Part shown: positions 1,376 to 13,857 of the stretch, in pieces
Position numbering within the stretch: position 1 is the stretch's first letter
Layout of the letters: each line of letters opens with the position of its first letter
Source: Candidatus Omnitrophota bacterium
GTDB taxonomy: Bacteria > Omnitrophota > Gorgyraeia > Aquiviventales > JACQRC01
Length of the DNA stretch: 64,000 nt
NCBI GenBank assembly: GCA_016206665.1
Contig: JACQRC010000089.1
Span: 8,393-72,392 of the forward strand
Reading direction: 5' to 3'
Notes under the pieces: generated by a model
What the model was told of the DNA's origin: nothing
Databases searched by the model: none
Seen by the model: the letters and a program-made list of their open reading frames with translations, nothing else
Program-made: the position numbers and the translations under genes

Positions 1376-1693
1376 ATGAAATCTAGAAAATTAACACGGG
1401 TCCAGGATCACCTGCAAGAGAAGCTGCGCTCTCCCCAATTTCGAGAATCCTATGCGGTGGAGGTCTTTAAGGCGCAGATCGCCAGGGAAATCATCGAGGT
1501 CAGAATCAAAGAGGGATTGACGCAGGGGGAGCTGGCCCAGAAAATCGGCGTTACGCAGCAGGAGATTTCCAAGATTGAAAATGGCGAATTCCAGCAGATT
1601 AAGACCGTGATGAGAGTGTTGCTCGCCCTTCGGCATCGGACGACCGTCTGCTTGCCCGCCGAGGAAGTGCCTCTCGGGTCTCAGCGCGCTTGA
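1376..1693 (+). CDS. XRE-family helix-turn-helix transcriptional regulator (possible antitoxin-like)
   Basis: HTH_XRE signature (LTQGELAQKIGVTQQEISKIENGE). Confidence 0.7.
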   Translation: MKSRKLTRVQDHLQEKLRSPQFRESYAVEVFKAQIAREIIEVRIKEGLTQGELAQKIGVTQQEISKIENGEFQQIKTVMRVLLALRHRTTVCLPAEEVPLGSQRA

Positions 1694-2107: not shown

Positions 2108-2416
2108 ATGGCCCACGTGATCAGAGCCGTCCTCCAAGAAGAATTAGCCAATTCCCGGCGGATGCAGCGCCGGTACGAACAGGCCCTGCGCAGGCTCGGC
2201 AAGGGCAGCCTGGTCAGGAAGCGCATCAGCGGCCATCCGTACTACTACCTGGCGCTGCGGGAAGGCAGGCGGGTGCGGTTCCAGTATCTGGGCAAGCTGT
2301 CGGCACAGGAACGTCAAGCGCGGCTGGCGCAGCATCGGCAGCGCGGGCAGTATCGGCGCCTCCTCCGGGAGGTCAAGCAGCAAATTCGCTTCCTGGAGCG
2401 GTCCCTGCGTGGCTAG
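2108..2416 (+). CDS. hypothetical basic protein, probable DNA-binding partner (antitoxin-like) of the downstream nucleotidyltransferase
   Basis: ORF with ATG at 2108 (the ORF track extends to a TTG at 2087). Arg-rich; its 3' end overlaps the downstream NTase start by 8 nt. Confidence 0.45.
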   Translation: MAHVIRAVLQEELANSRRMQRRYEQALRRLGKGSLVRKRISGHPYYYLALREGRRVRFQYLGKLSAQERQARLAQHRQRGQYRRLLREVKQQIRFLERSLRG

Positions 2417-3092
2417 CCAGCGCACGTTGTGCCAAGCGGTGCTCACGCGCCTGGCAAAGGCCGGTGTGCTGGAGGAGGTCGTGCTCATCGGGAGCTGGTG
2501 TCTGGAAGGCTACAAGAGCTACTTCGGCCGGCAGACACCGCTGACGGCGTTGCGGACGCGCGATATCGACTTTCTGGTGCCGCGACCAATGCGTATGCGA
2601 ACAGCGGTGGACGTGCCTGCCCTCCTGGACGATCTGGGCTTTATCCTGGACTTCCACCGGGGCGGGTACATCCGCCTCGTCCATCCGGAGCTAATTGTGG
2701 AGTTCCTCGTCCCAGAGCGGGGGCGGGGGACGGATCAGCCGGTGCGCTTACCCCAACTGAGCATCAACGCGCAATCCCTGCGCTTCTTGAATATGTTGGC
2801 GGAGCAGACGATCATGGCCACGCTGGAAGGGACCACGGTGCGCATGCCCCACCCGGCCGCCTTTGCGCTGCAGAAACTGCTCATCGCGCCGAGGCGTCAA
2901 GGCCATACGGGCAAGCAGGCCAAGGACGTGGAGGCAGCCATCGCGGTCCTGGAAGCCCTGCGCGCTCATGGAGAAACGGCCTCAGTGAGCCGGTGCTTTA
3001 CAGCACTGCCACGACGCTGGCAAACACACATTCGCCAGGCGCTCGGCGCGCGTCGCGAGCTGCGCGATTGGCTGGCGCTGCTGTCCAGTTAA
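2409..3092 (+). CDS. Pol-beta-superfamily nucleotidyltransferase, AbiEii/DUF1814-like (putative type IV TA toxin)
   Basis: GS-X10-DxD minimal NTase motif (LIGSWCLEGYKSYFGRQTPLTALRTRDIDFLV) near the N-terminus. ~227 aa; GTG start overlaps the upstream gene. Confidence 0.55.
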   Translation: MASQRTLCQAVLTRLAKAGVLEEVVLIGSWCLEGYKSYFGRQTPLTALRTRDIDFLVPRPMRMRTAVDVPALLDDLGFILDFHRGGYIRLVHPELIVEFLVPERGRGTDQPVRLPQLSINAQSLRFLNMLAEQTIMATLEGTTVRMPHPAAFALQKLLIAPRRQGHTGKQAKDVEAAIAVLEALRAHGETASVSRCFTALPRRWQTHIRQALGARRELRDWLALLSS

Positions 3093-3276: not shown

Positions 3277-3443
3277 GCGGCCAGCCTACCTGTTGGCATT
3301 ATCCATGCAGACCTGCTCGGAAAGACACACCACGGAAGCTCACGGCAACATGGAGAAATGAGAGCCAGTACCAATTTTATGTGTGTCAGCTTTTCGACAA
3401 TCAGCCGGTGGCTTAGCGGAAACACCAGACGGGAAAAGCAGTC

Positions 3444-5144
3444 ATGAGCGGATACGGCAGCTTGTCGAAAGAGCAGTTGATCGACAAAATCAAACGCTTA
3501 CAAAAACGTAAGAAATTTGGATTGGTTTGGGAGGACAAACTCGAAGATGTGGCAGAGCTTTGTAAGACAAAATTACCCGTGCTGGTCGATGAAAAAGGAG
3601 AGGAAATTTCGGATAGCGTGGCCGAGACAGCAAATGTGTTGATCGAAGGCGATAATTATCATGCACTCTCGGTTCTGAATTATACGCACAAGGGGAAAAT
3701 CGATTTCATTTATATAGACCCTCCTTACAACACTGGTGCAAAAGACTGGAAATATAACAACGCCTTTGTGGATGCTCAAGACCCCTACAGACATTCCAAG
3801 TGGCTATCCTTCATGGAGAAACGCCTCAAATTGGCAAAAAATCTTCTAAGGGATCAGGGAATTATATGTGTAACGATTGACGATTATGAAATGCCTCGTT
3901 TGTGGTCGCTTATGGATGAAATATATAACGAAAGTAATCATCTCGGAACCGTGGTTATAAGAAACAATCCGAAAGGAAGGAAAACGAAAAGGAAGGTATC
4001 GCTAATTCACGAATACGCCTTGTTTTACGGGCGAAGCGGTAATGCCAAGATTCAGAAATTAGAGGTCGCACCAGAGGACAAAACGCATAACTATGTGAAG
4101 GATAAGGACGACTCATGGTATCTGCCCGGCAACCTGAGAAAACAGGGAGTTGATAGTTTGGCCGTATCGCCTAAGACTGGGAGGTTGTCGGATAGATACT
4201 ACCCCATATATTACGATCCCAAGACGGGCAAGGTGAGTACCACCAAGAGTAAGCAATCAATAAAGATTTTGCCCATAGATAAGGACGGACAAAAAAGAAT
4301 ATGGCGTAGAGCCAAGCAAGTCATCGATGAGATGTTTGAGAGGGGTGATGTGTGGTATCAGAAAACCAAGTACGGCAATCAAATATTTTATAAATTTAGA
4401 GGCGGATTAGATGGCGAACCGCCAGAAAGCATTTGGTATGAGTCGAAATTTTCAGCAAGCGAACACGGGACACAAATACTCGACACAATTTTGGGAGTGC
4501 GAGAAACATTTCAGTATCCGAAATCCCCATACGCTGTTATGGAATGTATAAAAGTTGCTACCGCAAGCAGGGACGCGATCATACTGGATTTCTTCGCCGG
4601 TTCCGGCACTACCGGCCACGCAGCCTTAGAGTTAAATAGTGAAGATAATGGAAATCGCCAGTTCATTCTTTGCACAAATAATGAGAATGGCATTTGCAGG
4701 AACGTATGCTATCCCCGCATCAGGAAAGTCATGGCTGGATATACAGACTCAAAAAAGAAAAAAATAAATGGTTTAGGTGGAAATCTCAAATATTTTAAAA
4801 CGGATTTTGTTGAAGCCGAGCCAACTGATAAGAACAAAAAGAAATTAACGGTACAAGCGACTGAAATGCTTTGCTTGAAGGAGGGGGCGTTTAGAACAGT
4901 TGTTAACAAAAAATCTTTCAAAATTTTCAAGAATGCGAACCATTACGTGGGAATCATTTTTGACCACACAGCCATCCCCGATTTCAAGCAAGCGATCGAA
5001 AAGCTACAAGGCAAATTTAGCGTATACGTGTTCTCTCTTGGTGATGATGCTTTTGATGAGGAATTCGAGGATGTAAAACAAAAAGTGAAACTCTCGCCTA
5101 TTCCTGACGCGATCTTGAGAGTCTATCGAAGAATCTTCAAATGA
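3444..5144 (+). CDS. mod: Type III restriction-modification system, DNA methyltransferase (Mod) subunit, N6-adenine, beta class
   Basis: DPPY motif IV (IYIDPPYNTG) precedes the AdoMet motif I (LDFFAGSGTTGHAA), i.e. the beta-class order typical of Type III Mod. Low-GC codon usage; stop overlaps the res start (ATGA). Confidence 0.85.
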   Translation: MSGYGSLSKEQLIDKIKRLQKRKKFGLVWEDKLEDVAELCKTKLPVLVDEKGEEISDSVAETANVLIEGDNYHALSVLNYTHKGKIDFIYIDPPYNTGAKDWKYNNAFVDAQDPYRHSKWLSFMEKRLKLAKNLLRDQGIICVTIDDYEMPRLWSLMDEIYNESNHLGTVVIRNNPKGRKTKRKVSLIHEYALFYGRSGNAKIQKLEVAPEDKTHNYVKDKDDSWYLPGNLRKQGVDSLAVSPKTGRLSDRYYPIYYDPKTGKVSTTKSKQSIKILPIDKDGQKRIWRRAKQVIDEMFERGDVWYQKTKYGNQIFYKFRGGLDGEPPESIWYESKFSASEHGTQILDTILGVRETFQYPKSPYAVMECIKVATASRDAIILDFFAGSGTTGHAALELNSEDNGNRQFILCTNNENGICRNVCYPRIRKVMAGYTDSKKKKINGLGGNLKYFKTDFVEAEPTDKNKKKLTVQATEMLCLKEGAFRTVVNKKSFKIFKNANHYVGIIFDHTAIPDFKQAIEKLQGKFSVYVFSLGDDAFDEEFEDVKQKVKLSPIPDAILRVYRRIFK

Positions 5145-7360
5145 TGCTTCTGAAAGATTACCAGAACAACGCCATTAAGGAATTGCTCGGAAAAGCCAAA
5201 AAGCTTATTACCTACGGCGACGCGAAACGCATGGTTTTTAAAGCCCCCACCGCATCAGGTAAGACAATCATGATGGCCGAGTTCTTAAAGCAGTTATGCG
5301 AAGACAGGGAAGTTCTCGCTTCGTTTTCGCTTATCTGGACGGCCCCAAGGCAACTGCACATCCAGAGCAAGGACAAGCTGGAACAGTATTACGAGACAAG
5401 CCGCGCCCTTAGGTGTTCCCTCTTTGAGGAATTGGATGACAAACGGATTGACGAAGGCGAAATCCTCTTTTTCAACTGGGAGAGCATCAACAAGAACGAC
5501 AACATTTACATCCGCGAAAACGAGCAGGACAACAATCTGTCAAATGTTATAAGCCGGACGAAGGAGGAAGGCCGGATAATCGTTCTCGTCATTGACGAGA
5601 GCCATCACCATGCTACGAGCGAAATATCGCAAAACTTAATCCGCGACATTGACCCGAAGCTGACCATTGAAGTATCAGCTACCCCTGCGATGGAAAGCCC
5701 GGATGAGATTGTCTCCGTTCAGCTTGAGGATGTTAAGGCGGAGGCAATGATCAAGAAAGCTGTTATATTAAATCCGGACTTTGAAAATGTTCTCAGGGAC
5801 AGAAAAATTCAGAGTCAGTTAAGCAAGCAGTCCGAGGAGTTAGTTATTGAAACTGCTCTTAAGAAGCGAGATGCCCTTAAAGAAGCCTACAAGAAAGAGA
5901 GAGTAGGCGTCAATCCGCTCATTCTTATCCAGCTGCCGGACAGGAAAACGTCGCTTGAAGATGTGATTAAGGACAAAGTTATCGCAGTCCTCAAGAACAA
6001 GCACAAGATCACAGCTGAAAGTGGAAAGCTGGCAATCCATCTGGCGGAGCATAAAGAGAATCTTGACGACATTTCTGATCCCTACAACGAAGTAGAAGTT
6101 TTGATATTTAAACAAGCCCTTGCCTTGGGCTGGGATTGCCCCAGGGCTCATATCTTGGTTCTTTTCCGAGACTGGCAGAGCTTTGAGTTTTCGATCCAGA
6201 CAATAGGACGGATCATGCGTATGCCAGAACCTGATCATGGTCATTACGACACTGAAATCTTGAATTACGGATATGTATTTACCAACATCGAAAGTATAGA
6301 AATCCAAGAAGACTTGGCCAGAGATTACATCACGATTCACGCTTCGAAGCGTGGACGTGAATATTCACCTCTGTCGCTGCTTTCTTGCCACTCCAAGCGG
6401 TATCGCGAGAAAACTCGTTTGGCACCAATTTTTATCAAAGTTTTTCTGCAGGAAACTGCTGCCTACAGTCTGAGCCAGAGAATAAGGAAAAAAGCGAAGG
6501 GATTAAGCGCAAGATTTATTTCTGATTATAAGGCCGAGAATGTTGATGCATTAGCTGGCGCAAGCATAATCGGCGACAGGGCCATTAGAGTAACTGGCTG
6601 GGATTTACAAAAGTATTTTGATTACTTCATACGAAAGAGCCTCGCGCCGTTCTACGCCGAAGACAGGTCTATAGGCAGACTAAAAGAGGCCATTTACGAA
6701 TTTTTTGAGCAGGTCATGGGGATGCGCTATGAGGTTGTTCAAGAAGAGATTGTTCAAACGGTTTTAAGCGAAGGAAACCTCGTGCATTTTATTAATGTGA
6801 TCGACCAAGCTAAGGACAAATACATTGACTACATTTCAAGGCGGGAAAAAGAGCTTGAATTTGACCAGGGATGGGAAGTGCCAGAAACCATTGGTTTCAA
6901 CGCTCGCTACGCTATCGAAGATCGAAAAAAGTCCATCATGCACCCCTTTTTTAAGAGTGAGTATTCGGGTGTCGAAGCCGCATTTATGACTTTTTTAGAT
7001 GAACAGGACAAGGTAGTCTGGTGGTTCAAGAACGAAGCCAAGAATCCGGCTTATTTTGCTGTTCTCTACGAGGAAGATGGCGACAAAAGACCATTTTACG
7101 TTGATTTTATTGTCCAATTGAAAGATGGATTGATTGGGCTTTTCGATACGAAGGCCGGTCTGACCCAAAAAGTAGCTGGCCCGAAAGTCAATGGGCTTCG
7201 GACATATGTTGGGGAACAGAACAAAAAGGGCAAGAGGCTATTTGGCGGGATCGTTACCAATACCGATGGTCGGAATTACGCCGGGCGATGGGTTTACTTC
7301 AATAGGGAAGGAAAGGAATTATCCGGCAGCCTGGATAATTGGGAGACTTTGGCTTTTTAG
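5141..7360 (+). CDS. res: Type III restriction enzyme Res subunit (SF2 DEAD/DEAH helicase-nuclease)
   Basis: Walker A APTASGKT, DEAH-like box VIDESHHH and helicase motif layout. Translationally coupled to mod; low GC. Confidence 0.75.
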   Translation: MMLLKDYQNNAIKELLGKAKKLITYGDAKRMVFKAPTASGKTIMMAEFLKQLCEDREVLASFSLIWTAPRQLHIQSKDKLEQYYETSRALRCSLFEELDDKRIDEGEILFFNWESINKNDNIYIRENEQDNNLSNVISRTKEEGRIIVLVIDESHHHATSEISQNLIRDIDPKLTIEVSATPAMESPDEIVSVQLEDVKAEAMIKKAVILNPDFENVLRDRKIQSQLSKQSEELVIETALKKRDALKEAYKKERVGVNPLILIQLPDRKTSLEDVIKDKVIAVLKNKHKITAESGKLAIHLAEHKENLDDISDPYNEVEVLIFKQALALGWDCPRAHILVLFRDWQSFEFSIQTIGRIMRMPEPDHGHYDTEILNYGYVFTNIESIEIQEDLARDYITIHASKRGREYSPLSLLSCHSKRYREKTRLAPIFIKVFLQETAAYSLSQRIRKKAKGLSARFISDYKAENVDALAGASIIGDRAIRVTGWDLQKYFDYFIRKSLAPFYAEDRSIGRLKEAIYEFFEQVMGMRYEVVQEEIVQTVLSEGNLVHFINVIDQAKDKYIDYISRREKELEFDQGWEVPETIGFNARYAIEDRKKSIMHPFFKSEYSGVEAAFMTFLDEQDKVVWWFKNEAKNPAYFAVLYEEDGDKRPFYVDFIVQLKDGLIGLFDTKAGLTQKVAGPKVNGLRTYVGEQNKKGKRLFGGIVTNTDGRNYAGRWVYFNREGKELSGSLDNWETLAF

Positions 7361-7462
7361 CGAGCAAAGAGAGGGCCCAAAAGCACCGAGTACTTCGATG
7401 CCCTGCTGAACTATGTATCATGCCCACACACTTGGTATTGTGTTTACCGAATTAAAATTGGC

Positions 7463-8620
7463 ATGACCCAATTTTCGGGTACTCTACTGGCAAGCGGCGT
7501 TGTAGCCGCAGCGACGACGGCCACCCTACAGTTCCGCAGCGTTAGATGGGAACGACGGAAAGAATTTCTCGAGCACCAGCTGCGGTTGTATGGTCCCGCC
7601 TACGCCCTAATAGCACAGAATCGCGATGCTTTTGAACGAATCAAGAGCATTCATGTGCAGGGTGAGAAGCGCTTGAGTGGTGTAATCGGGGCAGAGAAAG
7701 ACATTGATGCAACGATAGCGGTGGCAAACGAACACATCAGACGAATCGTCTTGAGTAATAATGAAATCCTTGAGGACATGCTTAAGAAGAATCTACACTT
7801 CATCGATCCGGATGACATCCAGCTTGTAACGCAATTTTTCCATGATATGGCCAATTTAAAGGTGGAGACCTCAGCAGACGTGGGAACAAAGTTACCACTT
7901 CTAATGGCGCTGGATCTTCCCAATATATCATTTATGCGGCCCGGCCTTATTGAGTGCTTTGAGCAAAGATTTAGGCAGAAACAGGTTCAGTTTCGAGAAA
8001 TGCTAGGGAGCAGCAAGAGGCATCAACGGGATTTGCCAACGAACAAAAGACCGCTTTGCGCTGTTGGTTTACCTCCACGCATCTGGCGGACGTTTGCTAT
8101 ACCTGTCTTGACCGGCTTGATGGTGGCGCTCTTCTGGCATTTCTTTGAAGTGGTAAAACCGTGGAAGATAACATTATTCTTACCCTATGCGTATGAATAT
8201 GCCTATAGAGGAGCCACCAACACTACAGGCAATCAAAGCAGAGAAATCCTGCCCGTCGTCCCCATCCGCGTGCGTCTTACTGACAAAGCGAGTGGGTTTG
8301 TGTTTGCCGTTCACAATGATAACATTCGGAGTCTCCACGGAGTCTCGTTACATCTGCAACTACCGCCGGGTGTTGAGGTGACTGATCCAGGACCATTCAG
8401 AGCGTTTTGGCCAAACGAGGAATACTTTTTCTCTTTTGGGGACGCGGTGTTGAATCACGGAGTTTTCTATGCGACTGAGGTGCGTAATACTGCAGGCGAA
8501 CTGAAGGGTTCGATTCAACTAAAATTCAGCCAGCCAAGAGAGTACGAGATAATAGCCACTGTGAGCGGAGAAGACATGCTTCCGGCAGAGAAGAAAATCA
8601 AAATTGTCGTAGTACCCTAG
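7463..8620 (+). CDS. hypothetical membrane-associated protein (385 aa) of unknown function in the defence island
   Basis: Long low-GC ORF. N-terminal hydrophobic segment and an internal TM (AIPVLTGLMVALFWHFF); no recognisable catalytic motifs. Confidence 0.45.
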   Translation: MTQFSGTLLASGVVAAATTATLQFRSVRWERRKEFLEHQLRLYGPAYALIAQNRDAFERIKSIHVQGEKRLSGVIGAEKDIDATIAVANEHIRRIVLSNNEILEDMLKKNLHFIDPDDIQLVTQFFHDMANLKVETSADVGTKLPLLMALDLPNISFMRPGLIECFEQRFRQKQVQFREMLGSSKRHQRDLPTNKRPLCAVGLPPRIWRTFAIPVLTGLMVALFWHFFEVVKPWKITLFLPYAYEYAYRGATNTTGNQSREILPVVPIRVRLTDKASGFVFAVHNDNIRSLHGVSLHLQLPPGVEVTDPGPFRAFWPNEEYFFSFGDAVLNHGVFYATEVRNTAGELKGSIQLKFSQPREYEIIATVSGEDMLPAEKKIKIVVVP

Positions 8621-8666
8621 ACGCTTTACGCTATCCATAATGCCCGAAGCGGTTATTGACAGAATT

Positions 8667-8712
8667 GGCCAGGTTGAACCTCAGCGGAACGTGGCCCGAG
8701 TGAATTAAGTAT
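8667..8712 (+). repeat. 46-bp repeat, copy 1 (hairpin-forming), left of the 8733-9200 gene
   Basis: ggccaggttgaacctcagcggaacgtggcccgagtgaattaagtat matches 9190-9235 at 43 of 46 positions. It contains an imperfect stem ggccaggtt / aacgtggcc. Confidence 0.7.
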
Positions 8713-8732
8713 CTGTCCATGGAGTTGCAGTC

Positions 8733-9200
8733 ATGGATGCAAAGATTGTTGTGAAAATTTTAGGTCTTACCATAACTTCGGCTGGCGTCGTTCTGAGCCT
8801 GCTCAATCTGAAGGGTTTTCTCAAGTACCCAGAGCGCCTAAATTTTGCGCATTTGGCGCTCGAAACGAGCGAAGGCATTCCGCTTTCGCATCCTGGAGCT
8901 AAGTCCTTTATGAGTCGCTTCCCGCCACCTCCAACAGACAGCAAGGGTACGTTCACTCACTTCGTAAAAAATGCAATACAATTTACTGGTGGCGGGACCC
9001 CATTGTCAGGCACTGTTAAATACATGTATCCTGATGGAAGGCGGACTGCTGCGGTCGCAACATTTGAAGACGTAAAGCGCTGGGCCGCAGAATCACGTTA
9101 TCCGTGGCTTGCCTGGTGGCTGACAGTCGTAGGACTTCTCATCACTAGTGCAGGTGTCTTTTGGGACTGGCGGACAGCAGATCCCACCGGGCCAGGTTGA
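8733..9200 (+). CDS. hypothetical two-TM membrane protein (155 aa)
   Basis: Hydrophobic helices at the N-terminus (KILGLTITSAGVVLSLL) and C-terminus (WLAWWLTVVGLLITSAGVFW). Low GC; its stop codon lies inside repeat copy 2. Confidence 0.4.
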   Translation: MDAKIVVKILGLTITSAGVVLSLLNLKGFLKYPERLNFAHLALETSEGIPLSHPGAKSFMSRFPPPPTDSKGTFTHFVKNAIQFTGGGTPLSGTVKYMYPDGRRTAAVATFEDVKRWAAESRYPWLAWWLTVVGLLITSAGVFWDWRTADPTGPG

Positions 9201-9235
9201 ACCTCCGCGGAACGTGGCCCGATTGAATTAAATAT
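9190..9235 (+). repeat. 46-bp repeat, copy 2, right of the 8733-9200 gene
   Basis: ggccaggttgaacctccgcggaacgtggcccgattgaattaaatat is a direct repeat of 8667-8712. Confidence 0.7.
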
Positions 9236-9276
9236 TGCGGCCCTCAAATCGTTTATTACTTTGGGTAATATTTTGC

Positions 9277-9305
9277 TTGACAAACATCCGGCCGGTTCGT
9301 ATAGT
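9277..9305 (+). promoter_or_regulatory. consensus sigma70 promoter TTGACA-N17-TATAGT driving the non-coding region upstream of the RT module
   Basis: Perfect -35 at 9277-9282, exact 17-nt spacer, TATAGT -10 at 9300-9305. The nearest ORF start is ~450 nt downstream. Confidence 0.6.
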
Positions 9306-9311
9306 GCTTCT

Positions 9312-9758
9312 GGTGGATCCGATGGGACCATCGGACGTTCGATCTTTGATAGCTGCTACCTCCTTTTACTTTTAGCGAGGCGCGGTACCAAGAGTCGCTG
9401 AGAAGCGGCTGACCAGCCTGCCCCATGAAGACACCGTCATCCAGGACAGCCAATAGTGCGGTTGTCAAGGAAGGCGGGGTCTGTACGAAGGAGCTGGCGC
9501 TGGGTTAGTGTTCGGGCATGTGGTAAGCCAGAGAATTAAGGTGACCTGAGGCCAGACCCACGTAGCAGAACACTGGAAGACCCGGAACCTGTTCCAGTTG
9601 GGCAAGCCTACCCGTGCGGGTAGGAAATGACGTAGGCAGGGGTTCCAGGATGTTTTGGAAGAAGACGGGATCGCTTCCCCTTCCCCGCGGTGCGCGCCGA
9701 GCTTATGCAGGGGTTCCGGGTGCGCAACCCGGCTAGCTGCAGAGGAGGTGATGAAACA
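9312..9758 (+). ncRNA. candidate structured non-coding RNA (retron msr-msd-like or other RT-associated ncRNA); boundaries approximate
   Basis: It lies between the strong promoter and the first plausible RBS/ATG (GGAGGTG..ATG at 9759), with no convincing ORF. Multiple perfect hairpins are present: ccgatgg-ga-ccatcgg (9320-9335), cctacccg-tgc-gggtagg (~9607-9625), ccgggt-gcgca-acccgg (~9714-9730) and actggaa..ttccagt (~9572-9598). ggggttccRgg is a direct repeat. Confidence 0.35.
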
Positions 9759-10004
9759 ATGAGTAAGTGGCAGCTTATTTCAAAGGTCCTGGAGTTGATC
9801 TCGAAGTTAGAAGAGATCATCACCAGCGAGGGGAAGCGAAATTCTGAAGCGTCTGAGCTTCAGGAGTGCAGGGGCGACCTCAGGACTCTGCTAAAAAAAC
9901 TGCGGAGCCCCGGCGAGTCGGTCAACCCGAACGAAGTTCTACTGCTGTCATATAAAGCCGTAGAACACATAGCCTCCTGGCTCGAAGGAAAAGAAGAGAA
10001 GTAG
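9759..10004 (+). CDS. small hypothetical helical protein (81 aa)
   Basis: AGGAGGTGA RBS 6-7 nt upstream of ATG 9759. Predicted charged/coiled-coil protein. May instead be part of the ncRNA. Confidence 0.35.
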   Translation: MSKWQLISKVLELISKLEEIITSEGKRNSEASELQECRGDLRTLLKKLRSPGESVNPNEVLLLSYKAVEHIASWLEGKEEK

Positions 10005-10116
10005 AAACGATCAGACGCGGAAGACCCGTCTTTACTTCCAACAATAAAGTTTCTCCTGCCATTTTTCCTTCCTTACAATACACCAAGAACCTAAAAAGCG
10101 AACAAGGACGAACATC

Positions 10117-10410
10117 ATGAACGTCGGTGAAGCAATAAAAACGCTGCGGGTGAGGCGGCAGATAACTCAAAAGTTCCTGGCAGAACGATGCGGGATTACG
10201 CAAGGCTTCCTATCCCTTGTTGAAAGAGGAGACAGGGAGCCAGGGTTTGACTTAGTTGAGAAGATATCAGAAACGCTAGGCGTCCCACCACAGCTTATAC
10301 TCCTGCTTGCTTGTGAGAAATACACGCGGGGCAAACGCTACTCAAAACCTTTAAGGAAGATTGCTTTGACTCTAGACGAGCTACTTCACGCCTATTCCGC
10401 CGCTTGCTAA
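10117..10410 (+). CDS. XRE-family HTH DNA-binding protein, translationally coupled to the reverse transcriptase
   Basis: HTH_XRE signature (ITQKFLAERCGITQGFLSLVERGDREP). Stop TAA overlaps the RT start codon (TAATG). Confidence 0.7.
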   Translation: MNVGEAIKTLRVRRQITQKFLAERCGITQGFLSLVERGDREPGFDLVEKISETLGVPPQLILLLACEKYTRGKRYSKPLRKIALTLDELLHAYSAAC

Positions 10411-11333
10411 TGCATCCTCATCGAGCAGGGTCCACCATTTTATCGCCTGAAGAATTCGGGCGAGTTTTGGGCTACGAGCCAGCCTTCCTCCAGGACATGG
10501 TTAAGAATATCGAAAAAAACTACAGCCCCTATTTGGATAGAACAGGAAAGAAGCCACGCTGGATTGCCAGACCATCTGAAACTCTTAAGGGCGTCCAGCG
10601 TAAGATTCTCGATAACTTCCTGGAACTGGTCTCGTTGCCGAATTACGTCATTGGTGGAGTAAAGGGAAGGAAACACGCAGAACATCCAAAGTTACACGTA
10701 GGCCACCCTATCGTTGTGACGCTTGACGTCAAAGATTGCTACCCCAATATCACTTATAAGCAAGTTCTCGAGGTGTTCCGCGAGATCGGATTCTCCAAAG
10801 AAGTTGCGGTTTTGGCTACACGGCTGACAACGTACAGACGTCGGCTACCGTTGGGTGCTCCTAGTAGTACTCAGCTTGCCAATTTAATACTGAAACCAGC
10901 GGTGACGCGTGTCTGCGCCCTCGCAGAACAGGCAGGATTGGATGTTGCGAGTCAGTATATAGATGATCTGGCTTTCTCGGGAGATCAACTGCCTAACGAT
11001 TTCATCACTCTGGCGATCCGAGAATTCTCAAGACACATGATTAAGATTAACCGCAAGAAAATTCAAGTTATGCGTAGAGGCCATACACAACTTGTGACAA
11101 GAAGGCTGGTGAATGCTCGGGTCGCTCTGCCCACAAAGGAAAGACACAGAGTTAGGGCTGCACTTCACCAGCTCGGTAAGCTTGAAGCAAGTGATTCCTC
11201 ATATAGCAAGCAGTTCCTCAGTGTGCGTGGACGGATTCTCTCTTTAAGGAAATTACATCCACATCTTGGGCAACGTCTGATGGCGCAGCTCAACAGTCTG
11301 CAGAAGTCCACAACCAAGAAAACATCGCACTAA
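10410..11333 (+). CDS. retron-type reverse transcriptase (~307 aa, Ec86-like)
   Basis: RT motifs are present: 1-2 IVVTLDVKDCYPNI, 4 LPLGAPSSTQLANLIL, 5 YIDDLAFSG (YxDD). A retron-like C-terminal region is present (KKIQVM..QLVTRRLVN, corresponding to the VTG motif). The block order and many residues parallel the E. coli Ec86 retron RT. There is no maturase/X or endonuclease domain. Confidence 0.8.
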   Translation: MHPHRAGSTILSPEEFGRVLGYEPAFLQDMVKNIEKNYSPYLDRTGKKPRWIARPSETLKGVQRKILDNFLELVSLPNYVIGGVKGRKHAEHPKLHVGHPIVVTLDVKDCYPNITYKQVLEVFREIGFSKEVAVLATRLTTYRRRLPLGAPSSTQLANLILKPAVTRVCALAEQAGLDVASQYIDDLAFSGDQLPNDFITLAIREFSRHMIKINRKKIQVMRRGHTQLVTRRLVNARVALPTKERHRVRAALHQLGKLEASDSSYSKQFLSVRGRILSLRKLHPHLGQRLMAQLNSLQKSTTKKTSH

Positions 11334-11554
11334 TCTGCACTAGTGCCTTCCCGCGCGATAATAGGCCAAAAGAAACCGTACGGTGCTCCAGGGGGGCTGA
11401 CTATCCGTGAAAGCGCAGCGTTGCCAATGACCGCCAAAGTTATAGCCCAGAGAAAATTCGGATCGGCGCTATCATCTTGAATTCGAGGAATGCATCACCT
11501 AACTACAGGCCGAAATAATTTCCGTGTCCCTGAATTTTAAAGGGGGAAGTTTCA

Positions 11555-12202
11555 ATGGTAAAACTTTTCCTCGATATAGAAACCCTGCCCGCTGAAGAGT
11601 CCTTCAAAGCTGAAATTCAGAAGGGGATTCTTGCGCCGCGGGGTCCTAAAAAGAAGGCGGCAAAGGTCGCCGCGGCGCCAGCGACACCTAAGGAACTGGA
11701 AGAGCAATTGCGACAAACGGCCCTCAGCGGGGACTTTGGGCGAATTCTCTGTATTGGATACTGTAAAGAACCTCCTGCGGGGAGTTCTGCTGAGATACTG
11801 CAGGGTGGCGAGCGCGAGATATTGGAAAAGTTTTGGGTGATTGCGAGAGATGTCGATCTTTTTATTGGGCACAACGTTATGGAGTTCGATTTAAGGTTCA
11901 TCTACAAAAGGTCGATCATTCACAAAGTGAGGCCGACGAAAAACGATTTGAGCTTCGCACGATATCGCAGCCAACCAATCTACGACATCATGCGAGAGTG
12001 GGAAAAGTGGGACGTACAGACGTACACCTCTCTTGACAGAATGGCCAAAGTTTTGGGATTGGAGACTTCAAAGAAGGGACTGTCTGGAGACAAGGTTTAC
12101 GACGCTTTCCTGGCTGGGAAACTTAATGAGATCTACGAATATTGCAAGGCGGATGTTGAGCTGACGAGGCAGATTTATAAGCGAATGAATTTCGAGATCT
12201 AG
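11555..12202 (+). CDS. predicted 3'-5' exonuclease related to the exonuclease domain of family-B DNA polymerases (DEDD/RNase H-like fold)
   Basis: N-terminal LFLDIETLP (Exo I DxE). A C-terminal YCKADVELT (Exo III YxxxD) is present. Length ~215 aa, typical of stand-alone PolB-like exonucleases; low GC like the RT. Confidence 0.65.
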   Translation: MVKLFLDIETLPAEESFKAEIQKGILAPRGPKKKAAKVAAAPATPKELEEQLRQTALSGDFGRILCIGYCKEPPAGSSAEILQGGEREILEKFWVIARDVDLFIGHNVMEFDLRFIYKRSIIHKVRPTKNDLSFARYRSQPIYDIMREWEKWDVQTYTSLDRMAKVLGLETSKKGLSGDKVYDAFLAGKLNEIYEYCKADVELTRQIYKRMNFEI

Positions 12203-12382
12203 TAAAGGTACCAGCTTCCTCCGTGCCAGGTTAACCGAAGCATAGCTGATGAGCACAAAACTAATTGACCCAGACAAAATCCAGATCGGCGACGTGGTGT
12301 TGGTGGCCACGCGGAATCGGATTACGGAGTGGGTGCAACGGAAGCTGGGGTTTGGGGATCGGAGGGCCGTTGAGGACGACAC

Positions 12383-12417
12383 TTGACATGCATAAAAACT
12401 CATGCTATCTTATGCAT
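12383..12417 (+). promoter_or_regulatory. sigma70-like promoter (TTGACA-N17-TATCTT) overlapped by the inverted repeat ATGCATAA-N14-TTATGCAT (operator) for vapBC
   Basis: -35 at 12383-12388, -10 at 12406-12411. Palindromic arms lie at 12388-12395 and 12410-12417. Confidence 0.5.
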
Positions 12418-12430
12418 TGGAGGTGACCCC

Positions 12431-12631
12431 ATGCGGACGACCCTGGACATCAACGCGCGGTTGCTGCGGGACGCCATGCGGCGCGCCCGCCTCAAGACGA
12501 AGACCGAGACGGTGGAGCGCGGGCTGGAGGAGCTCATCAATACCGAGCGGCGCCGGCGGCTGATCCGAGCCCGGGGCGCGGGTTACGGATTGACCTTCGA
12601 GGACTTCCTGCGTTCCCGCCGGGATGAGTAG
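12431..12631 (+). CDS. vapB: type II antitoxin, VapB-like
   Basis: Small Arg-rich protein immediately upstream of, and overlapping by 8 nt, a PIN-domain gene. ATG at 12431 follows the GGAGGTGA RBS. Confidence 0.7.
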   Translation: MRTTLDINARLLRDAMRRARLKTKTETVERGLEELINTERRRRLIRARGAGYGLTFEDFLRSRRDE

Positions 12632-13028
12632 ACAGCTCGTCCTCGCGGACACCTCGGTCTGGGTGGCGCACCTGACCGGGCGTCACACAGCGGTGACGAA
12701 CGCCCTGCAAGAGCTCCTGTCCGCACACCGCGTGGCCGTCAATGCCGTGATTCGGCTCGAGCTGTTGACCGGCGCCCGGGACGAGGCCCAGTACGCCGAA
12801 CTCGATGACGCCCTGGGCGGCTTGCACGCGGTGGAGCTGACGGAGGCCGTCTGGCGCCAGGCCGAGCGGCTGCGGTTCGACTTGCGACGGCGCGGGCGGT
12901 TGATTCCCGCCCTGGATGTGCTCATCGCCTCCTGCGCGATGGCGTATGATTGCGCCGTGCTGCATGCCGACCGCCACTTCGACTTCATCGCGCGCAGCGC
13001 TCCACTGACGATTCATCAGCCCGCCTAA
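12624..13028 (+). CDS. vapC: type II toxin VapC (PIN-domain ribonuclease)
   Basis: PIN-domain acidic residues (LADTSVW.., ..LELLTGA.., ..PALDVLIAS..) and size ~134 aa. Confidence 0.8.
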   Translation: MSRQLVLADTSVWVAHLTGRHTAVTNALQELLSAHRVAVNAVIRLELLTGARDEAQYAELDDALGGLHAVELTEAVWRQAERLRFDLRRRGRLIPALDVLIASCAMAYDCAVLHADRHFDFIARSAPLTIHQPA

Positions 13029-13306: not shown

Positions 13307-13564
13307 GTGAGTGAACCGTACGACCCTACGGCCTTTCAGGAGATCATCTGTACCGGCCACGCCCGTGAACGCATGGAGAAGCGCGGCGTCAGCCGGGACG
13401 ATGTGGAGACGACACTGCAGCGTCCCGATGTCATCTTGCCGGTCATGCCGGATGGGACGAGAGAATTGCGCCGGCGTATCGGGCGGCGAGTGCATTATGT
13501 CGTCATCGCCCTGAAGCGCCAGCAGGCTATCTTGATTACCACGGGGTGGAGCCGAGAACCATGA
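13307..13564 (+). CDS. DUF4258-family protein (putative toxin of a TA pair)
   Basis: CTGHARERMEKRGVSRDDVE motif characteristic of DUF4258. Overlaps the downstream partner gene. Confidence 0.5.
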   Translation: MSEPYDPTAFQEIICTGHARERMEKRGVSRDDVETTLQRPDVILPVMPDGTRELRRRIGRRVHYVVIALKRQQAILITTGWSREP

Positions 13565-13857
13565 AACCGAGCAAATTTGCCGAGCATCCCACCGTCAAGC
13601 TGGTGACCTATGACCCGGTGGCCCACGCCGCCTACTTCCTGTTCGAGGACCGGCCGGTGGCCGAGACCAAAAAGTTTAACGCCTATATCTCGTTAGATTT
13701 GGATGAGGCCGGCCGGTTGATCGGCATCGAGGTGCTGCACCTGAATGGTTCCAAGCTGCATGAGGTGGAGGAGGCTCTTCAAGAGGTCGCGCGAATGTTT
13801 CGGCGGCCCGAAGTTACCCACATTCACCTCGACGCCCTGCAGGAAGCTTTTCAGTAA
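13546..13857 (+). CDS. DUF2283-family protein (putative antitoxin partner)
   Basis: VTYDPVAHAAYFLF..DLDEAGRLIGIEVL pattern typical of DUF2283. This pairing with DUF4258 is common. Confidence 0.5.
   Translation: MEPRTMKPSKFAEHPTVKLVTYDPVAHAAYFLFEDRPVAETKKFNAYISLDLDEAGRLIGIEVLHLNGSKLHEVEEALQEVARMFRRPEVTHIHLDALQEAFQ

Follow-up and report, generated by a model that had tools for sequence, protein, structure and literature searches.

A distant Type VI retron in an Omnitrophota genome, with an exonuclease gene downstream and nuclease genes in the same position beside related retrons

Introduction

Type VI retrons are defined by a reverse transcriptase (RT) that is accompanied by a Cro/C1-type helix-turn-helix (HTH) protein and an auxiliary protein of 75-79 amino acids (Mestre 2020, PMC7736814). 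In Retron-Vpa2 of Vibrio parahaemolyticus and Retron-Sen3 of Salmonella this small protein (SP) is the toxin, and a long 'hybrid' RNA (hyRNA), bound in a complex with the HTH protein and RT, carries both the reverse-transcription template and the SP coding sequence (Zhang 2025, bioRxiv 10.1101/2025.10.22.683967; Garcia-Rodriguez 2026, bioRxiv 10.64898/2026.04.27.721009). Here we describe a locus of this type in a 64,000-nucleotide stretch of DNA from Candidatus Omnitrophota bacterium (assembly GCA_016206665.1, contig JACQRC010000089.1, positions 8,393 to 72,392; hereafter the window). The RT gene of the locus is followed by a gene for a predicted 3'-5' exonuclease, and we consider whether the two belong together.

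The Type VI trigger is reported to be phage recombination functions or the inhibition of RecBCD (10.1101/2025.10.22.683967; 10.64898/2026.04.27.721009). Activation involves derepression of SP translation that depends on single-stranded DNA (ssDNA) in Vpa2, where direct repeats are conserved in the loops of the hyRNA (Zhang 2025, bioRxiv 10.1101/2025.10.22.683967), and post-translational release of SP from the HTH protein in Sen3 (Garcia-Rodriguez 2026, bioRxiv 10.64898/2026.04.27.721009).

Results

A Type VI retron

An original prediction, made from the sequence of the window alone, had claimed a retron module consisting of a promoter, a non-coding RNA, a small open reading frame, an HTH gene and an RT gene. 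All of these parts are present at or near the positions proposed for them (Table 1). An alignment of the RT with 26 homologues contains the YIDD motif, and the invariant residues of the family, including D185 and D186, are kept in the window protein. A check of the RT against profiles of the retron, UG, DRT and Abi families, as had been suggested, returned retron models: the best PADLOC match was RT_VI (7.9e-57, residues 12-288), the second was RT_III-A (1.1e-50), and every one of the best 25 of 37 matches was a retron RT model. The NCBIfam matches comprised three retron RT families, all below their cut-offs, and one weak unrelated family (NosR-family response regulator, 8e-5). No profiles, partners or domains characteristic of group II introns, DGRs (diversity-generating retroelements) or Abi/UG enzymes were found. 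The RT had been called Ec86-like, which is right in so far as it is a general retron RT. However, the RT_II-A profiles, which represent the type of Ec86, match it at 6e-41, below the score of RT_VI, and no nucleoside-deoxyribosyltransferase-like effector was found within 7400-12400. Given the Type VI profile as best match and the gene order SP-HTH-RT, the term is too loose.

The partners of the RT are those of Type VI. The 97-residue HTH protein is within the 91-110-aa range of the Cro/C1 proteins that lie upstream of or overlap the RT gene in this type, and it matches the PADLOC profile HTH_VI at 2e-19 over profile positions 1-87 of 92. Its TAA stop codon overlaps the ATG of the RT in the sequence TAATG, as originally read. 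In the relatives of the locus the HTH protein is 42-63% identical and is always encoded directly before the RT. Upstream of it lies the 81-residue SP (∼75-80 aa in Type VI), which is conserved in both position and sequence. Its frame is open from a GTG at 9690 (9690-10004), and the conserved start is the ATG at 9759. SP has tblastn matches in 10 loci (best 5e-17), and in 28 of the 32 listed loci with HTH and RT an SP of 76-92 aa is followed by an HTH protein of 93-98 aa whose gene overlaps or adjoins that of the RT; the contigs of the other four begin too close to the HTH gene for SP to be called. The fourth property of the type is an upstream structured RNA that runs on into the SP coding sequence, and it is evident from covarying helices and from pairing between a 5' arm and SP codons, as described below.

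About 50 relatives of the RT were identified at 30-54% identity, all from metagenomes or metagenome-assembled genomes (MAGs) and several from Omnitrophota, and the order SP-HTH-RT is conserved among them. A scan of a genome collection for relatives gave three loci only and a scan of viral contigs two weak partial matches only, while annotated phage and plasmid collections contain relatives at no more than 32% identity. We therefore conclude with high confidence that 9255-11333 is a Type VI retron, of the abortive-infection anti-phage type. The retron adds a new and phylogenetically distant member to a known family, whose SP-HTH-RT module has already been described. By analogy with Vpa2 and Sen3, SP is the predicted toxic effector and the HTH protein its predicted antagonist and a predicted partner of the RT. 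The locus had been proposed as a new tripartite system of RT and exonuclease; as SP and HTH are already the effector pair of the Type VI module, that proposal is not retained.

Operator-like palindrome, promoter and structured leader

A palindrome, ATTAC-N5-GTAAT, lies directly upstream of the promoter. It is the only match to this pattern within the 64-kb window, and each of 21 related loci likewise has exactly one site, invariably a few bases before the -35 hexamer (L001-L003, L005-L007, L010, L014, L017, L019, L029-L036, L043, L044 and L046; L-numbered loci are metagenomic relatives, of which L037, L038, L040 and L042 are homologues of the exonuclease and the remainder derive from RT relatives). 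Neither Type VI preprint mentions such a palindrome (Zhang 2025; Garcia-Rodriguez 2026). We propose it as a candidate operator to which the HTH protein probably binds, in which case this protein is possibly an autorepressor. The promoter is the best sigma-70-like site of the region and its hexamers and spacing are as predicted, TTGACA-N17-TATAGT, although it is not the perfect promoter that had been claimed, the -10 hexamer having one mismatch to the consensus. Both hexamers align across 20 loci.

The sequence from 9306 to 9758 is non-coding, which agrees with the hairpin-rich leader of ∼450 nt originally described, and the predicted fold of 9312-10116 is more stable than that of shuffled sequences (-312.8 versus -268.8 kcal/mol, z = -6.7). 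In an alignment of the ∼470 nt 5' of SP from 20 loci, the elements follow one order: palindrome, -35 and -10 hexamers, a 7-bp hairpin, the motif TGATCTTTGA, hairpins and a long-range helix, AGGGGYT repeats, a further hairpin and the SP ribosome-binding site. Two copies of the AGGGGYT core are conserved in all relatives. RNAalifold predicts 35 pairs from the alignment, 28 of them with compensatory changes. A fuller structure of 57 pairs in nine helices is 88.9% paired, compared with 76.3% for shuffled alignments, and has 39 pairs changed on both sides, compared with 24.4, a value of 39 being reached in none of 500 shuffles; because this structure came from the same alignment, the slide control has a bias towards it.

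The 5' arm can pair with the start of the SP gene. In the window the duplex has an energy of -15.4 kcal/mol, attained by 1% of shuffles. In most loci the arm pairs with SP codons ∼3-14 at -12.5 to -23.5 kcal/mol, values that no more than 5% of shuffles attain in 16 of 20 loci, and no more than 1% in 12 of 20, and the helix covaries at two positions. In the minimum free energy (MFE) fold of the window the arm pairs instead with the HTH ribosome-binding site (10103-10113). A covariance-model search for a known retron RNA had also been suggested, and here a permissive Rfam scan of 8500-12600 yielded chance-level matches only, with no retron family. On the evidence of the alignment, the leader is a conserved structured RNA.

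An intact DEDDy exonuclease downstream of the RT

The gene after the RT encodes a DEDD/PolB-like exonuclease, as predicted, in the same orientation as the retron and with the same low GC content (0.485 compared with 0.484 for the RT). The protein matches Pfam DNA_pol_B_exo2 at 3.4e-16 (60 bits, against a cut-off of 24) and also passes the threshold of RNase_H_2. The Exo I (DxE), Exo II (NxxxFD) and Exo III (YxxxD) motifs are all present, set in an RNase H-like fold, and D7, E9, N107, D112, Y196 and D200 are invariant across 22 homologues. The AlphaFold model (pLDDT 87) matches proofreading exonuclease domains of family-B polymerases in Foldseek searches (E ∼1e-7). Hence, as modelled, the fold and the predicted active site are intact. 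The family to which it belongs, the stand-alone PF10108/PF13482 PolB-like exonucleases (RNase H-like clade F; Majorek 2014, PMC3985635), is matched over the full length at 50-73% identity with all DEDDy residues, and the window copy differs in its setting, a horizontally acquired defence island beside a retron. Neither a terminator on the forward strand nor a promoter was found in the 221 nt between the RT and exonuclease genes.

Table 1 Positions of the features of the window
Feature	Position	Strand	Remarks
XRE/MqsA-like HTH	1376-1693		left of island
NTP_transf_8 nucleotidyltransferase	2409-3092		left of island
N6/N4 DNA methylase (N6_N4)	3444-5144	+	Pfam
ResIII helicase subunit	5141-7360	+	Pfam
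Unannotated protein, 385 aa	7463-8620	+	
Unannotated protein, 155 aa	8733-9200	+	
Retron module	9255-11333	+	
Palindrome ATTACTTTGGGTAAT (ATTAC-N5-GTAAT)	9255-9269		7 nt upstream of -35 hexamer
Sigma-70-type promoter TTGACA-N17-TATAGT	9277-9305	+	11/12 consensus matches
Structured non-coding leader	9312-9758	+	by analogy, the msr-msd-containing part of the Type VI hybrid RNA
5' hairpin, 7 bp	9318-9335	+	
5' inverted-repeat arm, nearly invariant motif TGATCTTTGA	9339-9360	+	pairs with SP start, 9769-9788
Closing helix	9376-9384 with 9693-9701	+	encloses variable central domain of ∼300 nt
Direct repeat TAGGCAGGGGTTCCAGG	9633-9649	+	
Direct repeat TATGCAGGGGTTCCGGG	9704-9720	+	
Hairpin just before SP ribosome-binding site	∼9716-9732	+	
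Small protein SP, 81 aa	9759-10004	+	ribosome-binding site AGAGGAGG at 9741-9748
Cro/C1-type HTH protein, 97 aa	10117-10410	+	Pfam HTH_3 1.7e-13
Retron RT, 307 aa	10410-11333	+	RVT_1 4.6e-11; YIDD catalytic motif
8-bp hairpin across RT stop codon	11327-11346		no T-tract on + strand; terminator-like site on minus strand only
DEDDy PolB-exonuclease-like 3'-5' exonuclease, 215 aa	11555-12202	+	ribosome-binding site AAGGGGGAAG
VapB/VapC-PIN	12383-13028		right of island; TTGACA-17-TATCTT site at 12383-12411
DUF4258/DUF2283 pair	13307-13857		right of island

Nuclease genes downstream of related RTs

A nuclease gene lies at most two genes downstream of the RT in 10 of 17 distinct loci, the window included, as a raw count of loci. 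The most frequent product is a Cas4-like protein of 220-225 aa with full-length matches to Cas4 profiles, four cysteines and the DxK and QxxxY motifs. The start of its gene coincides with the RT stop codon or is only a few bases away from it in L005/L031, L030, L006, L032, L033/34 and L049/50/52, and lies one gene further away in L010. In L046 the RT stop codon is overlapped by the gene of a 406-aa PDDEXK_1 protein. In L011/12 the next gene after that of the RT encodes a DUF2779 protein of ∼500 aa, and in L035/36 such a protein is encoded one gene further on. The genes on either side differ among these loci. Upstream, L032/33 have restriction-modification (R-M) genes; downstream, L046/49/50 have prophage-like genes for ParB-methylase and terminase; the remaining loci have other genes. 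The conserved unit is therefore the retron together with the nuclease. No match to PF12705, PF01930 or PF11074 was found among ∼49 other called genes of the flanks. In a tree of the RTs, from which L049/50/52 were left out, seven loci with Cas4-type or DUF2779 genes form one clade at 59-66% identity, and L011 and the window stand apart from it.

The DUF2779 proteins bear on the exonuclease of the window. In the model of the L011 protein (pLDDT 86) the N-terminal half matches Cas4 and the C-terminal half matches RNase T, a DEDD enzyme, and DUF2779 has been placed in the 3'-5' exonuclease clade of RNase H-like proteins and found to co-occur with a Cas4-like domain (Majorek 2014, PMC3985635; mSphere 2026). 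Thus a DEDD exonuclease domain occurs in the position after the RT in two lineages. The motifs FLDFET, NxxFE and YCxLD of DUF2779 (PF11074) parallel LDIET, HNxxxFD and YCxAD of the window protein, whose fold is like the DEDD-type exonuclease fold of the C-terminal half of DUF2779, and DUF2779 and solo Cas4-like proteins occupy the same gene slot after the RT in relatives. Unlike DUF2779, however, the window protein has no Cas4 domain. Sequence comparison did not confirm homology between the two, as BLASTP aligned the motifs only and comparisons of profiles were not significant; the likeness to DUF2779 therefore relies on fold matches and the literature.

Among further proteins encoded downstream of related RTs, those of L001 (229 aa), L002 (208 aa), L003 (196 and 280 aa), L035 (199 aa), L011 (193 aa) and L043 (140 aa) have no usable match in Pfam, PHROG, NCBIfam or PADLOC. 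Strings resembling PD-(D/E)XK motifs, seen by eye and without profile support, are present in L002 (3228-3854), L035 (4596-5195) and L003 (7464-8306), namely RPDVCVY..FDLK, KPDIIVY..CEIK and MDLLAIK..LEVK. The retron and Cas4-like cassettes of L046 (5652-8918), L049 (3264-5885) and L050 (2868-5489) lie beside genes for ParB-N/methylase and terminase large-subunit proteins, and some members are therefore carried on prophages or phages.

These comparisons of gene neighbourhoods make an association of retron and nuclease probable at the level of the clade. No nuclease gene on Type VI retrons is mentioned in Mestre 2020, in either Type VI preprint or in literature pairing a retron with Cas4 or a nuclease, within a searchable literature that is incomplete. 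It is possible that the recurrent pairing represents a nuclease-bearing variant of Type VI which we have not found described.

The low-GC island and its genes

The retron and the exonuclease gene lie in a low-GC island at ∼3400-12200 of the window, in which the genes have a GC content of 0.42-0.51 and the leader 0.58, compared with ∼0.65 in the flanks. An R-M neighbour in a low-GC defence island had been predicted and is confirmed by the N6_N4 methylase and ResIII genes. The gene following the exonuclease, VapB, has a GC content of 0.635, and VapB and VapC together are at 0.64-0.68; this places the end of the island between 12203 and 12382, with the exonuclease gene as its last. The exonuclease gene was acquired together with the island. 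Neither a tRNA gene nor direct repeats flanking the island were found at its borders. Genes of toxin-antitoxin type bracket it on both sides.

Three further features of the island were noted. A 46-nt direct repeat (8667-8712 and 9190-9235, 93% identical), which contains the short inverted repeat GGCCA..TGGCC, brackets the 155-aa open reading frame; its second copy ends 20 nt before the retron palindrome, and the repeat may be a terminator-like element or mark the boundary of a cassette. The 385-aa protein is homologous in its C-terminal half to a 212-aa protein of L032 (6807-7445; BLASTP 3e-16), which is encoded two genes after the RT, and constitutes a second neighbour that recurs beside these retrons. 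Directly upstream of the retron, the window (3444-7360) and three other loci (L032 1-3952; L033/L034 1-3907) carry genes for a ResIII helicase and an N6/N4 methylase as a pair. The methylases of these loci are only 23-25% similar to that of the window and the gene order is reversed. From such gene orders, R-M systems and this retron clade may be recurrently co-located.

Discussion

The retron of the window resembles Retron-Vpa2 in the order of promoter, structured RNA, SP, HTH and RT, in having the SP start inside the RNA structure, in the direct repeats of the RNA and in a 5' region that pairs around the SP reading frame. It differs in its host, an Omnitrophota MAG, in the lack of close relatives in annotated phage and plasmid records, and in the nuclease gene that comes after the RT, as it does in many members of the clade, none being mentioned by Zhang 2025. 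With the Retron-Sen3/cl2075 lineage it shares a long variable internal domain and a structured region around the SP ribosome-binding site. The segment after the 5' hairpin can also pair with the HTH ribosome-binding site in both, as predicted for Sen3 (Garcia-Rodriguez 2026, bioRxiv 10.64898/2026.04.27.721009) and in the MFE fold of the window. However, the partner of the 5' arm in the clade of the window is SP codons ∼3-14, whereas that of Sen3 is a repeat after the SP stop codon, and neither an operator palindrome nor a downstream nuclease is part of the description of Garcia-Rodriguez 2026. A stem-loop just before the 5' repeat and a sequestered SP initiation region are common to the published Type VI RNAs and that of the window. 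Retron-Eco1/Ec86 (Type II-A) has in common with the locus only the general fold and motifs of a retron RT, seen in the RT_II-A matches; the better score of RT_VI, the HTH and SP partners in place of a nucleoside-deoxyribosyltransferase-like effector, and an RNA of ∼450 nt continuous with coding sequence set the window apart.

Based on these similarities, we propose that the single promoter, flanked by a palindrome at which the HTH protein is probably bound and sets the level of transcription, would drive a long structured transcript carrying the template for reverse transcription and the coding sequence of the toxic 81-aa SP. In healthy cells the ribosome-binding site and first codons of SP would be held in long-range helices, such that SP is untranslated, or else SP would be neutralized by the HTH protein. 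The RT, the HTH protein and the RNA would form a complex, as in Vpa2 and Sen3. On infection, recombination or anti-nuclease functions of the phage would cause ssDNA made by the RT to accumulate, or SP to be freed from the HTH protein, and SP so translated or freed would arrest the cell. In Vpa2, RecBCD and other host nucleases are proposed to process the RT product (Zhang 2025, bioRxiv 10.1101/2025.10.22.683967). The exonuclease of the window may act as a dedicated nuclease that trims or turns over such ssDNA; alternatively, it may be a guarded target.

That the exonuclease is functionally tied to the retron, filling the slot taken by Cas4-like or Cas4 plus DEDD proteins elsewhere, is suggested by its position, its membership of the island and the nucleases in the equivalent slot of relatives; its strand and GC content, both those of the retron, lend support. 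We hold this link tentatively, at about an even chance, as several findings weigh against it. The RT and exonuclease genes are separated by 221 nt, whereas the Cas4-like genes overlap the RT stop codon. No PF10108-type exonuclease was found near any related RT, either by tblastn or with a hidden Markov model (HMM) of 22 homologues; the co-conservation of exonuclease and RT that had been expected therefore fails, and of the predicted nuclease partner what stands is that a Cas4-like or Cas4 plus DEDD protein recurs in the same position, while the PF10108 family does not. An opposite-strand match to the HMM in L022/23 was dismissed as weak (E 0.003). The exonuclease family is very large, with >1,100 clusters at 50-60% identity, most of them of Patescibacteria or Omnitrophota origin. 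The homologues examined are mostly in repair or housekeeping contexts, such as after nucleotide-metabolism genes (L038), behind an AddA-like UvrD-PDDEXK helicase-nuclease (L040) or in the neighbourhood of ExoVII and DinB (L042). A ThsB-like TIR gene, and not a retron, precedes the closest homologue (73%, L037). Profiles of the exonuclease and DUF2779 are not significantly similar (hhalign E 0.19, 0.055 and 0.049). No recognizable nuclease is encoded in 7 of the 17 related loci, among them the sister locus of the window, L043, and in a Pseudomonas plasmid with the order SP-HTH-RT it is a DUF2513 gene that directly follows the RT. Finally, most Cas4-linked loci fall in one RT clade and thus represent few independent events, for which reason the link is rated probable for the clade and roughly evenly balanced for the window itself.

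In L037 (537-2922) the exonuclease begins at the stop codon of the ThsB-like TIR gene (PADLOC 7e-57) and a C5 cytosine methylase gene comes next; this sub-branch of the exonuclease therefore appears in another defence context. In the Pseudomonas plasmid, a PDDEXK gene is present on the opposite strand ∼2 kb downstream.

The strongest rival to a functional link is that the retron is an ordinary Type VI system, complete in itself, and the exonuclease is unrelated cargo of the island with a repair or defence role of its own, the nucleases of relatives likewise being island or prophage content. This would account for an exonuclease family that is huge, mostly unlinked to retrons and not co-conserved with the RT, for the gap and the hairpin at the RT stop codon, and for the loci without a recognizable nuclease (L043, L001, L007, L016 and L044). 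Some Cas4 loci also adjoin genes for terminase and ParB-methylase, surroundings in which nucleases of phage recombination are frequent, and the published Type VI retrons function with SP, HTH, RT and RNA only. Chance proximity is harder to reconcile with the junction of RT and Cas4 genes, often a stop/start overlap, which persists through changes in both flanks and down to an RT identity of ∼60%, with the presence of DUF2779 instead in two separate lineages, and with an exonuclease gene that has the GC content of the retron and terminates the island. We regard this rival as a serious contender, if short of an even chance.

It is very improbable that the nuclease (the exonuclease or a Cas4-like protein), rather than SP, is the killing effector, activated by ssDNA or an infection signal so as to degrade DNA of the phage or the host, as in the nuclease-bearing retron types I, VII, IX and XIII. 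Several retron types do use nuclease effectors (Mestre 2020, PMC7736814), the catalytic residues of the exonuclease are intact, and Cas4-family accessory nucleases occur in other defence systems, such as the Argonaute-associated ACE1, which is among the fold matches. However, all relatives conserve SP, which has been shown to be the toxin in two Type VI retrons, 7 of the 17 loci lack a recognizable nuclease, and a processive 215-aa exonuclease of the proofreading type with no sensor domain is an unlikely stand-alone effector. That the RT is instead a group II intron, DGR or Abi/UG/DRT enzyme, as the generic RVT_1 assignment by Pfam alone and the lack of an Rfam retron RNA match might allow, is extremely improbable given PADLOC matches of which the best 25 of 37 are retron RT models, NCBIfam matches to three retron RT families and one weak unrelated family but to none of the rival classes, the absence of a maturase, endonuclease or Avd in the surroundings, the HTH and SP partners that define the type, and the covarying upstream RNA.

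If the exonuclease is functionally linked to the retron, a broader reading suggests itself. In both published Type VI mechanisms infection is reported through ssDNA made by the RT or through the activity of host RecBCD, and the nucleases lie outside the operon (10.1101/2025.10.22.683967; 10.64898/2026.04.27.721009). A sub-lineage of Type VI, so far seen only in Omnitrophota, related uncultured bacteria and their prophages, might instead encode its own ssDNA nuclease, either a solo Cas4-like protein, a Cas4 plus DEDD fusion or, as in the window, a solo DEDDy exonuclease. Such a nuclease would keep ssDNA low in healthy cells and would also be the guarded target; when it is blocked by anti-nuclease or recombination proteins of a phage, ssDNA would build up and the toxin would be turned on. 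The retron would then not depend on RecBCD of the host. We consider this extension speculative and rather unlikely as it stands.

Should the exonuclease be merely a neighbour, what the locus adds is one more member, new and phylogenetically distant, to a known defence family. In either case the ATTAC-N5-GTAAT palindrome provides a testable DNA target for the HTH protein, whose role in DNA binding is unreported. If the self-encoded nuclease proves correct, a RecB-family (Cas4-like) or DEDD exonuclease encoded by the clade itself would make the infection-sensing step genetically tractable, and would suggest how such retrons operate in hosts without RecBCD.

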